Assembly (NCBI RefSeq): GCF_003018255.1
Contig: NZ_CP027440.1
Reading direction: 5' to 3' (one strand)
DNA: 64,000 bases
From: Escherichia coli
GTDB lineage: Bacteria > Pseudomonadota > Gammaproteobacteria > Enterobacterales > Enterobacteriaceae
Shown here: piece by piece, positions 4,189-34,118 of the stretch
How the letters are laid out: every line of letters begins with the position of its first letter
Numbering within the stretch: the first letter of the stretch is position 1
Position numbers and translations under genes: made by a program
Notes under the pieces: generated by a model
Told to the model about the DNA's origin: nothing
The model's database searches: none
What the model saw: the letters and a program-made list of their open reading frames with translations, nothing else

Positions 4189-6450
4189 ATGTCGCAACAT
4201 AACGAAAAGAACCCACATCAGCACCAGTCACCACTACACGATTCCAGCGAAGCGAAACCGGGGATGGACTCACTGGCACCTGAAGACGGATCTCATCGTC
4301 CAGCGGCTGAACCAACACCGCCTGGTGCACAACCTACCGCCCCAGGGAGCCTGAAAGCCCCTGATACGCGTAACGAAAAACTTAATTCTCTGGAAGACGT
4401 ACGCAAAGGCAGTGAAAATTATGCGCTGACCACTAACCAGGGCGTGCGCATCGCCGATGATCAAAACTCACTGCGTGCCGGTAGCCGTGGTCCAACGCTG
4501 CTGGAAGATTTTATTCTGCGCGAGAAAATCACTCACTTTGACCATGAGCGCATCCCGGAACGTATTGTTCATGCACGCGGATCAGCCGCTCACGGTTATT
4601 TCCAGCCATATAAAAGCTTAAGCGATATCACCAAAGCGGATTTCCTCTCAGATCCGAACAAAATCACCCCAGTATTTGTACGTTTCTCTACCGTTCAGGG
4701 TGGTGCTGGCTCTGCCGATACCGTGCGTGATATCCGTGGCTTTGCCACCAAGTTCTATACTGAAGAGGGTATTTTTGACCTCGTTGGCAATAACACGCCA
4801 ATCTTCTTTATCCAGGATGCGCATAAATTCCCCGATTTTGTTCATGCGGTAAAACCAGAACCGCACTGGGCAATTCCACAAGGGCAAAGCGCCCACGATA
4901 CTTTCTGGGATTATGTTTCTCTGCAACCTGAAACTCTGCACAACGTGATGTGGGCGATGTCGGATCGCGGGATCCCGCGCAGTTACCGCACCATGGAAGG
5001 CTTCGGTATTCACACCTTCCGCCTGATTAATGCCGAAGGGAAGGCAACGTTCGTACGTTTCCACTGGAAACCACTGGCAGGTAAAGCCTCACTCGTTTGG
5101 GATGAAGCACAAAAACTAACCGGACGTGACCCGGACTTCCACCGCCGCGAGTTGTGGGAAGCCATCGAAGCAGGCGATTTTCCGGAATACGAACTGGGCT
5201 TCCAGTTGATTCCTGAGGAAGATGAATTTAAGTTCGACTTCGACCTTCTTGATCCAACTAAACTTATCCCGGAAGAACTGGTGCCCGTTCAGCGTGTCGG
5301 CAAAATGGTGCTCAATCGCAATCCGGATAACTTTTTTGCCGAAAACGAACAAGCAGCATTCCATCCAGGTCATATTGTTCCTGGTCTGGACTTCACCAAT
5401 GATCCCCTGTTGCAGGGACGTTTGTTCTCTTATACCGATACACAAATCAGTCGTCTTGGTGGGCCGAATTTCCATGAGATTCCGATTAACCGTCCGACCT
5501 GCCCTTACCATAATTTCCAGCGTGATGGCATGCATCGTATGGGGATCGACACTAACCCGGCGAATTACGAACCGAACTCGATCAACGATAACTGGCCGCG
5601 CGAAACACCGCCGGGGCCGAAACGCGGCGGTTTTGAATCATACCAGGAACGCGTGGAAGGCAATAAAGTTCGCGAGCGCAGCCCATCATTTGGCGAATAT
5701 TATTCTCATCCGCGCCTGTTCTGGTTAAGTCAGACGCCGTTCGAGCAGCGCCATATTGTTGATGGTTTTAGTTTTGAGTTAAGCAAAGTAGTACGCCCGT
5801 ATATTCGTGAGCGCGTTGTTGACCAGTTGGCGCATATCGATCTTAACCTTGCGCAGGCGGTAGCAAAAAATCTCGGTATTGAGCTGACTGACGATCAACT
5901 GAATATTACGCCGCCACCGGACGTCAACGGGCTGAAAAAAGATCCTGCGTTAAGTCTGTACGCCATTCCTGACGGTGATGTGAAAGGTCGCGTGGTAGCG
6001 ATTTTGCTTAATGATGAAGTGAGATCGGCAGACCTTCTGGCCATTCTCAAGGCGCTGAAGGCCAAAGGCGTTCATGCCAAACTGCTCTATTCCCGAATGG
6101 GTGAAGTGACTGCGGATGACGGTACGGTGTTGCCTATAGCCGCTACCTTTGCCGGTGCGCCTTCGCTGACGGTCGATGCGGTCATTGTCCCTTGCGGCAA
6201 TATCGCGGATATCGCTGACAACGGCGATGCCAACTACTATCTGATGGAAGCCTACAAACACCTTAAACCGATTGCGCTGGCAGGAGACGCGCGCAAGTTT
6301 AAAGCAACAATCAAGGTCGCTGACCAGGGTGAAGAAGGGATTGTGGAAGCTGACAGCGCCGACGGTAGTTTTATGGATGAACTGTTAACGCTGATGGCAG
6401 CACACCGCGTGTGGTCACGTATTCCTAAGATTGACAAAATTCCTGCCTGA
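4189..6450 (+). CDS. katE: catalase HPII (large-subunit monofunctional catalase)
   Basis: 753-aa ORF with catalase core sequence; RBS aaggagacgag upstream. Confidence 0.95.
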
Positions 6451-6454
6451 TGGG

Positions 6455-6700
6455 AGGCGGCGCAGTTGCGCCGCCTCAAATGATTTACATAGTGCGCTTT
6501 GTTTATGTCGGATGCGGCGTGAACGCCTTATCCGGCCTACAAAACTGTGCAAATTCAATATATTGCAGGAAAAACGTAGGCCTGATAAGCGAAGCGCATC
6601 AGGCAGTTTTGCGTTTGTCAGCAGTCTCAAGCGGCGCAGTTACGCCGCCTTTGTAGGAATTAATCGCCGGATGCAAGGTTCACGCCGCATCTGGCAAACA
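6455..6700. repeat. BIME/RIP-type cluster of REP palindromes (katE-chbG intergenic)
   Basis: Hairpin GAGGCGGCGC...GCGCCGCCTC at 6455-6478; canonical REP units GGATGCGGCGTGAACGCCTTATCCGGCCTAC (about 6510-6545) and inverted copies at about 6578-6607 and 6663-6697; central segment resembles an IHF-site-containing RIP element. Confidence 0.8.
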
Positions 6701-6707
6701 TCCTCAC

Positions 6708-7478
<771 letters not shown>

Positions 7479-12787: not shown

Positions 12788-13615
12788 ATGACATTGCAAC
12801 AACAAATAATAAAGGCGCTGGGCGCAAAACCGCAGATTAATGCTGAAGAGGAAATTCGTCGTAGTATCGATTTTCTGAAAAGCTACCTGCAAACTTATCC
12901 GTTCATTAAATCACTGGTGCTCGGGATCAGCGGCGGTCAGGACTCCACACTTGCCGGTAAGCTGTGCCAGATGGCGATTAATGAGCTGCGCCAGGAGACC
13001 GGCAACGAATCACTGCAATTTATTGCCGTACGCCTGCCCTATGGTGTTCAGGCCGACGAACAAGATTGCCAGGATGCCATTGCCTTTATTCAACCGGATC
13101 GCGTATTAACCGTTAATATCAAGGGCGCGGTATTGGCCAGCGAACAGGCGCTGCGCGAAGCGGGTATTGAATTAAGTGATTTTGTCCGTGGCAATGAAAA
13201 AGCGCGTGAGCGGATGAAAGCACAATATAGCATTGCGGGTATGACCAGCGGTGTCGTGGTGGGCACCGATCATGCTGCAGAAGCCATTACCGGATTCTTC
13301 ACTAAATATGGTGACGGCGGTACGGATATTAATCCGCTGTATCGTCTCAACAAACGCCAGGGTAAACAGTTACTGGCGGCATTAGGTTGCCCGGAACACC
13401 TTTATAAGAAAGCCCCAACGGCCGATCTGGAAGATGATCGCCCTTCTCTGCCAGATGAAGTGGCACTCGGCGTGACCTATGACAATATCGACGACTATCT
13501 GGAAGGGAAAAACCTACCTGAACAGGTCGCCAGAACAATAGAGAACTGGTATCTGAAAACCGAACATAAACGCCGTCCGCCAATTACCGTTTTCGATGAT
13601 TTCTGGAAAAAGTAA
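12788..13615 (+). CDS. nadE: NH3-dependent NAD+ synthetase
   Basis: 275-aa ORF with PP-loop SGGQDS motif. Confidence 0.95.
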
Positions 13616-13656
13616 TAATTTGCACATATTGGTTTGTGCGAAAAAGAGTACTTTGT

Positions 13657-13757
13657 TCACGCCGGATGCGGCGTGAACGCCTTACTCGACCTACAAAACT
13701 ATGCAAATTCAATACATTGCAGGAGTCGAATAGGCCTGACAGGCGTAGCACGTCAGA
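13657..13757. repeat. BIME/RIP-type REP cluster (nadE-cho intergenic)
   Basis: REP unit GCCGGATGCGGCGTGAACGCCTTACTCGACCTAC and inverted partner AATAGGCCTGACAGGCGTAGCACGTCAGAC; central segment near-identical to the one at 6540-6580. Confidence 0.8.
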
Positions 13758-13810
13758 CGGTGTAACCTTTGTCATCGACCCGCCTCTTTTTTAATCGCTC
13801 TCCGCCTGTT

Positions 13811-13830
13811 ACACTGGATAGATAACCAGC
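13811..13830 (+). promoter_or_regulatory. LexA (SOS) box upstream of cho
   Basis: ACACTGGATAGATAACCAGC: CTGG-N8-CCAG palindrome, a non-canonical SOS box variant, 15 bp before the cho start. Confidence 0.7.
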
Positions 13831-13844
13831 ATTCGGAGTCAACA

Positions 13845-15345
<1,501 letters not shown>

Positions 15346-34050: not shown

Positions 34051-34082
34051 TGCCGGATACAGCGCAAACGCCTTATCCGGCC
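34051..34082. repeat. REP palindrome (gdhA-topB intergenic)
   Basis: TGCCGGATACAGCGCAAACGCCTTATCCGGCC. Confidence 0.7.
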
Positions 34083-34118
34083 ATAAAAATCTTCAGTATC
34101 AGATGGTTGAAAGAACCT

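Follow-up and report, generated by a model that had tools for sequence, protein, structure and literature searches.

Two intergenic spacers in the window, the 64,000-nucleotide stretch of Escherichia coli DNA analyzed here, very probably each contain a full-length BIME-1, a mosaic repeat of Escherichia that is non-coding, ~150 bp long and also known under the names RIP and RIB. The first copy lies between katE and chbG, and the second between nadE and cho. BIME-1 has been defined as one Y REP and one Z1 REP that are inverted relative to each other, separated by a long, well-conserved linker (L) that frequently contains an IHF site, and present as a single unit of about 140 bp per locus (Ton-Hoang et al., 2012; Chiapello et al., 2005). 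Both window elements display all those BIME-1 features for which the sequence allows a test. The BIME/RIP-type identification, which had been proposed from the letters of the DNA without database searches, is thus borne out by the Y/Z1 layout, by the literature definition and by matches to a family profile. Knowledge of BIME-1/RIP elements dates from the early 1990s; the two copies are typical of the family, and as elements they are already known.

The near-identical central segment that had been noticed in the two spacers was confirmed. The pattern CTACAAAACTRTGCAAATTCAATAYATTGCAGGA matches the plus strand at positions 6537-6570 and 13691-13724 with 0 mismatches, and the two 34-nt cores are identical at 32 of 34 positions. 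No third match was present in the 64-kb window, even when up to 3 mismatches were allowed, and shuffled controls gave 0 matches in 100 shuffles. The two whole units align at 86% identity across ~121 nt. Chance likeness of the two spacers was rejected on the basis of the shuffled controls and the dispersal of the family described below.

REPs were located with the three consensus sequences that Durrant et al. (2024) quote. At both sites a Y REP on the plus strand is followed by the core and then by a short Z REP on the opposite strand, which is the order of REP, core and inverted REP described by the sequence-only reading. The Y REP of copy 1 (6507-6540) ends in CTAC and has 2 mismatches to the published Y consensus, and that of copy 2 (13661-13694) has 4. 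The Z REP of copy 1 (6576-6604, minus strand) has 1 mismatch to GCCTGATGCGCTACGCTTATCAGGCCTAC and that of copy 2 (13730-13758, minus strand) has 6. These short Z REPs are assigned to Z1 by elimination, since in the Rfam consensus REP325/naRNA4 has a Z2 REP of the long form; no long Z REP was found anywhere in the window. Between the REPs, the plus-strand L linkers are 35 nt long in both copies (6541-6575 and 13695-13729), as supported by matches to the Rfam ES036 model, and they agree with both the family profile and the independent Rfam consensus. The linker of copy 1 contains a palindrome formed by TGCAA (6548-6552) and TTGCA (6563-6567); that of copy 2 contains the IHF-like sequence ATTCAATACATTG. 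Beyond the katE and nadE spacers, the sole further REP-like sequence detected in the window is a lone degenerate Y REP at 34052-34085, with 6 mismatches to the consensus.

The limits of the elements were established with a family profile. A scan of a single genome from each species for the exact 22-mer TGCAAATTCAATAYATTGCAGG yielded twenty further copies, and an nhmmer profile was built from 20 Escherichia sequences with enough flank. Against this profile, in which both window copies are included, a single full-length match was obtained at each locus. Copy 1, comprising an A flank, Y, L, Z1 and a B flank, extends over 6476-6629 on the plus strand (154 bp; profile positions 4-157 of 159, 158 bits, E = 3e-48), and copy 2, in which the REP arms are decayed, over 13633-13780 on the plus strand (148 bp; profile positions 7-154 of 159, 139 bits, E = 3e-42). 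In the family profile the outer flank consensus sequences (left, ..cagATTGttGACaAAGTGcGCtTTGTTCAT; right, AgTtTtgCgTTTGtCATcAatctca) are imperfect inverted repeats of each other. These limits modify the ranges originally proposed. The range 6505-6700 does take in the element of the katE spacer, but it cuts off the left flank and includes two foreign segments, a hairpin at 6631-6650 (H2, see below) and a degenerate Y REP at 6653-6696; the range 13657-13757 was imprecise, as the profile match is wider on both sides. The degenerate third Y REP, on the plus strand, consists of GTAGG, an 8-nt insert and GCCGGATGCAAGGTTCACGCCGCATCTGGC. It was recognized as an inverted repeat with the Y REP (31 nt at 77%) and gives weak profile matches, and it is located outside the shared unit. 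Because copy 1 is accompanied by this extra REP 48 nt downstream, some catalogues may count the site as a three-REP cluster. We also observed that CTGCCTGATG (6443-6452), around the katE stop codon, is similar to the 5' end of a Z REP and has an inverted match to 6597-6606.

Comparison with described repeat families supports the assignment to BIME-1. With BIME-1/RIP/RIB the two elements share the Y and inverted Z1 REPs, the ~35-nt L linker with its IHF-like site and the occurrence of one unit per locus, and they are also alike in size (~150 bp), in position just 3' of a gene and in presence or absence among strains. They depart from the family in no essential respect; the extra Y REP and a duplicated hairpin lie near copy 1, and the arms of copy 2 are decayed. 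BIME-2 elements (REP325/naRNA4, Rfam RF02564) share REPs in alternating orientation and extragenic placement, but differ in combining Y with the long Z2, in having short linkers (S, s, l, r), in forming tandem arrays and in being targets of gyrase rather than of IHF. BIME-2/naRNA4 was rejected, given an naRNA4 score of only 33 bits, where the gathering score is 59.5, and the lack of a long Z REP in the window. REPINs also consist of two inverted REPs around a spacer and are likewise non-autonomous, with GTAG-tagged REPs recognized by TnpA-REP. Unlike REPINs, which are mobilized by RAYT/TnpA-REP, BIME-1 has a long conserved linker and conserved outer flanks.

Gene calls at both spacers were taken from the annotation of an identical strain and of K-12. 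Strain JNE23-011 is 100% identical to the window across the region queried, and the window is 97.4% identical to K-12 MG1655 over 12.5 kb. The katE gene (plus strand) ends with TGA at 6448-6450, as seen in both sequence and annotation, and the annotated stop codon of chbG (minus strand) is at 6708-6710, giving a 257-bp spacer between a convergent pair. The nadE gene (plus strand) ends with TAA at 13613-13615, again by sequence and annotation, and cho is annotated on the plus strand with a GTG start at 13845. Both spacers had been described as lying between convergent genes. That description holds for katE and chbG, but nadE and cho are co-directional according to the annotation, so that copy 2 is situated between the 3' end of nadE and the cho promoter region. 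The elements begin 26 nt past the katE stop codon and 18 nt past that of nadE, in extragenic positions at gene 3' ends. A CTG-N10-CAG sequence, CTGGATAGATAACCAG, is present at 13814-13829, 16 nt 5' of the cho GTG and 34 nt 3' of the end of BIME-1; it resembles the LexA box expected for SOS-regulated cho. REP or RIP repeat_region features were sought in the NC_000913.3 annotation record, and none were present.

The elements had been called recognizable genome-wide repeats rather than novel ones, and a search for similar copies elsewhere in the genome gave results in agreement with this. Of 5426 complete E. coli genomes, 5425 contain the 49-nt linker region, and the median number of sites in a genome is at least 27. 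The exact 22-mer was sought in 100,044 species representatives and occurs in Escherichia only (E. coli, E. albertii, E. whittamii and unnamed Escherichia species), with the exception of one contig. This contig, NZ_AGAF01000060.1 (262 bp, labeled 'Desulfosporosinus sp. OT'), contains a K-12-type katE 3' end together with BIME-1 and is probably E. coli contamination of the Desulfosporosinus assembly.

The likeness of the two spacers might alternatively have arisen by local duplication or gene conversion between loci 7 kb apart, given the proximity of the copies and the lack of any others in the 64-kb window. Equally similar copies, however, are found at many unrelated loci (lpdA-yacH and others), copies occur in at least four other Escherichia species, and the two window copies differ in population status, that at katE being polymorphic and that at nadE fixed. 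A local origin is refuted by the genome-wide and cross-species copies, together with the high median number per genome, and its probability is negligible. We therefore retain the identification of both sites as members of the dispersed BIME-1 family.

The polymorphism of the katE locus is evident from the sizes of its alleles. A long allele, with the 257-bp spacer and BIME-1, is carried by 1930 of the 5426 genomes; in ST131, O157:H7 and JS316 the katE-chbG spacer is 46 bp and contains one unrelated hairpin, AAGGTCACGCCCCCTGGGGAGTGACCTT. The final two sense codons of katE and its stop codon differ synonymously between the alleles (CCT GCC TGA in the long allele vs CCG GCG TAA). BIME-1s have been described as present or absent among isolates and as concentrated in strain-specific 'loops' (Chiapello et al., 2005), and the polymorphism of the katE copy fits this published pattern. 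The katE-chbG spacer is thus a dimorphic marker of E. coli lineages. The copy at nadE-cho is fixed, with 5425 of 5426 genomes covering at least 80% of a 501-bp query centered on it; E. whittamii and Escherichia sp. E1V33 have it as well. Two versions of the left flank were observed at nadE-cho, one in the window, K-12 and E. whittamii, and a quite different one, with the hairpin GCGGCCTCCCCGCC, in CP52E and E1V33.

Sequence variation among orthologous copies was evaluated at nadE-cho. In a small sample of five sequences, two of which were chosen by an exact linker match so that the comparison is biased, variation affected 5 of the 35 columns of L, compared with 12 of 34 columns for Y, 8 of 29 for Z1 and 16 of 64 for the adjacent spacer outside the element; within the IHF-like 13-mer, 1 of 13 columns varied. 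CP52E, which is divergent and was not selected in this manner, has 1 difference from the window across the 35 positions of the linker and 10 across the 34 positions of Y. The conserved nadE linker would provide weak independent support for IHF binding.

A TCAA-N4-TTG pattern reminiscent of an IHF site had been pointed out in the shared core, and it is present in both copies, as ATTCAATATATTG at 6553-6565 and ATTCAATACATTG at 13707-13719. Both 13-mers have one mismatch to WATCAANNNNTTR, which is reportedly the IHF consensus as given by Craig and Nash and by Goodrich and colleagues. The match itself is uninformative, however, as the window contains 71 occurrences of WATCAANNNNTTR with up to 1 mismatch where 61 ± 8 are expected, a difference that is not significant. 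The motif was consequently rejected as evidence by itself, and the case for IHF derives from membership in the family. Table 2 of PMC6907758 assigns WATCAANNNNTTR to H-NS and TCGATAAATT to IHF, apparently with the two motifs swapped. IHF interacts with the sequence between the REPs of BIME-1 (Nunvar et al., 2010, citing Boccard and Prentki, 1993), and from the family's experimentally shown binding, as recounted in reviews, we infer that IHF binds both L linkers. A literature search for locus-specific reports of IHF binding at the two copies returned none. If the family literature applies here, IHF would bind the L linker (at ATTCAATATATTG in copy 1) and bend the DNA.

The sequence-only reading had further proposed that the elements mark terminators. 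This was not upheld, as a consensus scan found no intrinsic terminator in either spacer. A scan of both spacers for sigma-70-like promoters was also negative, although a consensus scan of this type is weak evidence. With neither a canonical terminator nor a canonical promoter in either spacer, any role of the elements at RNA 3' ends is a matter of inference. Because the elements begin no more than ~30 nt past the katE and nadE stop codons and have the same orientation as these genes, they are most likely transcribed within 3' UTRs. The predicted RNA fold of 6440-6710 has an energy of -119 kcal/mol (z = -7.1 vs shuffled sequences) and that of 13610-13800 an energy of -60 kcal/mol (z = -4.5 vs shuffled sequences); strong folding of both spacers is expected for clustered palindromes. 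As described in the family literature, the REP stems may fold in mRNA or extrude in supercoiled DNA, and the upstream transcript could thereby be stabilized or attenuated.

A scan of the whole window at Rfam gathering thresholds returned exactly two matches, both to RF02751 (ES036, CssrF) and both in the elements, one at 6541-6583 with 55.4 bits and the other at 13695-13737 with 42.9 bits; the gathering score is 37.6. The core could thus be viewed as a multi-copy small-RNA gene to which the REPs are incidental. Both linkers do score above the threshold, and the family was defined on RNA: ES036 is a 43-nt RNA-seq signal at MG1655 740211-740253 (Rau et al., 2015), and CssrF is a ~290-nt Northern band from the dacB-yhbZ spacer in Shigella. 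Rau et al. (2015), however, report no start site for ES036 and suggest processing from a longer transcript, for example a 3' UTR; moreover, neither spacer has a promoter-like site, and reads from a multi-copy repeat are not assignable to a single locus. The 43-nt ES036 model, which aligns end to end with both linkers, corresponds exactly to the BIME-1 L linker plus GTAGGCCU, indicating that the model is itself derived from the repeat. RF02751 in effect models the BIME-1 linker, an independent sRNA gene is unlikely at these loci, with no sign of one at katE or nadE, and the small-RNA explanation of the core as a whole is very improbable. A processed linker fragment may accumulate, which would be compatible with the BIME-1 explanation that we favor. 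For annotation, ES036 sRNA matches at these sites are to be read as BIME-1 linkers. A second signal, ES098 (Rau et al., 2015; K-12 1814204-1814245), corresponds approximately to window positions 4526-4567 within the katE coding region, and it was not reported by the gathering-threshold scan of the window.

The katE copy is bordered by a duplicated hairpin. A 20-nt direct repeat surrounds the element, GCGGCGCAGTTGCGCCGCCT at 6457-6476 and GCGGCGCAGTTACGCCGCCT at 6631-6650, and each repeat forms a hairpin. The left repeat is held within hairpin H1 (6454-6477; GAGGCGGCGCA-GT-TGCGCCGCCTC), which was located by repeat search, and the right repeat is hairpin H2, identical to the left at 19 of 20 positions. 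The direct match between the two segments (95%) exceeds their inverted match (85%). Copy 2 at nadE-cho has no clear flanking repeat. Different, locus-specific hairpins are duplicated around BIME-1 at six other loci, and matches between the flanks of the same locus exceeded the 95th percentile of cross-locus controls (score 8; control mean 5.8) at ~7 of 11 independent loci.

A clean pair of filled and empty sites was obtained for the paralogous copy at lpdA-yacH only. K-12 BW25113 and one O157 strain possess a single terminator, AAAAAAGCGGCTAACCACGCCGCTTTTTTT, at this position, and the filled site in E69 and SCU-124 consists of AAGCGGCTATTCTGGCCGCTT, BIME-1 and AAGCGGCTAACAACGCCGCTTTTTTT and is 171-172 bp longer. 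BIME-1 insertion thus goes together with the doubling of an entire terminator-like stem-loop, the right copy of which keeps the T-run. The corresponding empty katE-chbG allele, predicted to have a single hairpin, was not seen among the sampled E. coli genomes, implying that the 46-bp allele is a different spacer and not the pre-insertion state, and it was rejected as such.

Hairpin duplication would be consistent with staggered cleavage that is directed by structure and takes place at the base of an extruded hairpin, whereby BIME-1 would end up between a hairpin that has no T-run and one that bears it. We consider it doubtful that integration of BIME-1 at terminator-like stem-loops, with a target duplication of ~20-23 bp, is both real and undocumented for this family. 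The duplication of terminator hairpins bears on how BIME-1 spreads. Paired substitutions that leave the stem intact (C-G to T-A, G-C to A-T) often distinguish the two copies of a duplicated hairpin; the copies at lpdA-yacH differ in the loop only. The paired stem changes could reflect selection on both hairpins or fold-back copying.

The ~20-nt hairpin duplications around BIME-1 behave like those of YPAL/RU-2, miniature insertion sequences of Yersinia. YPAL elements are ~168 bp long, are not A+T-rich, have internal inverted repeats and are co-transcribed with upstream genes; their target duplications, according to a review, range from 3 to 26 bp and span or adjoin dyad symmetries. YPAL belongs to another genus and was compared with BIME-1 by description only; no report of an IHF site was found for it.

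An alternative reading is that the IHF site serves mobilization of the element, with IHF acting as an architectural cofactor of excision or insertion, and that BIME-1 is purely selfish DNA. Such a role would account for the transposon-like anatomy, in which the outer flanks are imperfect inverted repeats, for the flanking direct duplications at ~7 of 11 independent loci and for the existence of filled and empty alleles, and other miniature elements with IHF sites are known, such as the Neisseria Correia element. The nadE copy argues in the other direction, as it is fixed and its REP arms are decayed, yet its linker is the best-conserved segment in the small and partly biased sample described above. 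This combination suggests constraint that has persisted after the loss of mobility. We regard a role restricted to mobilization as possible but unlikely; it overlaps with the BIME-1 identification and is not exclusive of it. Under that identification, which we favor, BIME-1 would be non-autonomous mobile DNA, parts of which may since have been put to use by the host. The family literature also suggests that the REPs would be recognized by the REP-associated Y1 transposase and would provide insertion targets for IS elements.

An IS insertion at the katE-side element was identified in strain GPEC1201, where IS621 interrupts BIME-1 within the Z REP. On the minus strand, the junctions read CTTATCAGGCCT followed by TGTAT at the start of IS621, and ACAGTAT at its end followed by CTACCAATAAAC. 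The insertion point falls between ATCAGGCCT and AC, and CTAC directly follows ACAGTAT. This junction is the natural IS621 target reported by Durrant et al. (2024). In the window, this target is degenerate and not intact in the Z1 REP of copy 2. In the Z1 REP of copy 1, minus-strand positions 6586-6576 read ATCAGGCCTAC, an intact natural IS621 target. The segment at 6576-6586 is therefore a natural target of the IS621 bridge recombinase and its bridge RNA, and is occupied in at least one strain.
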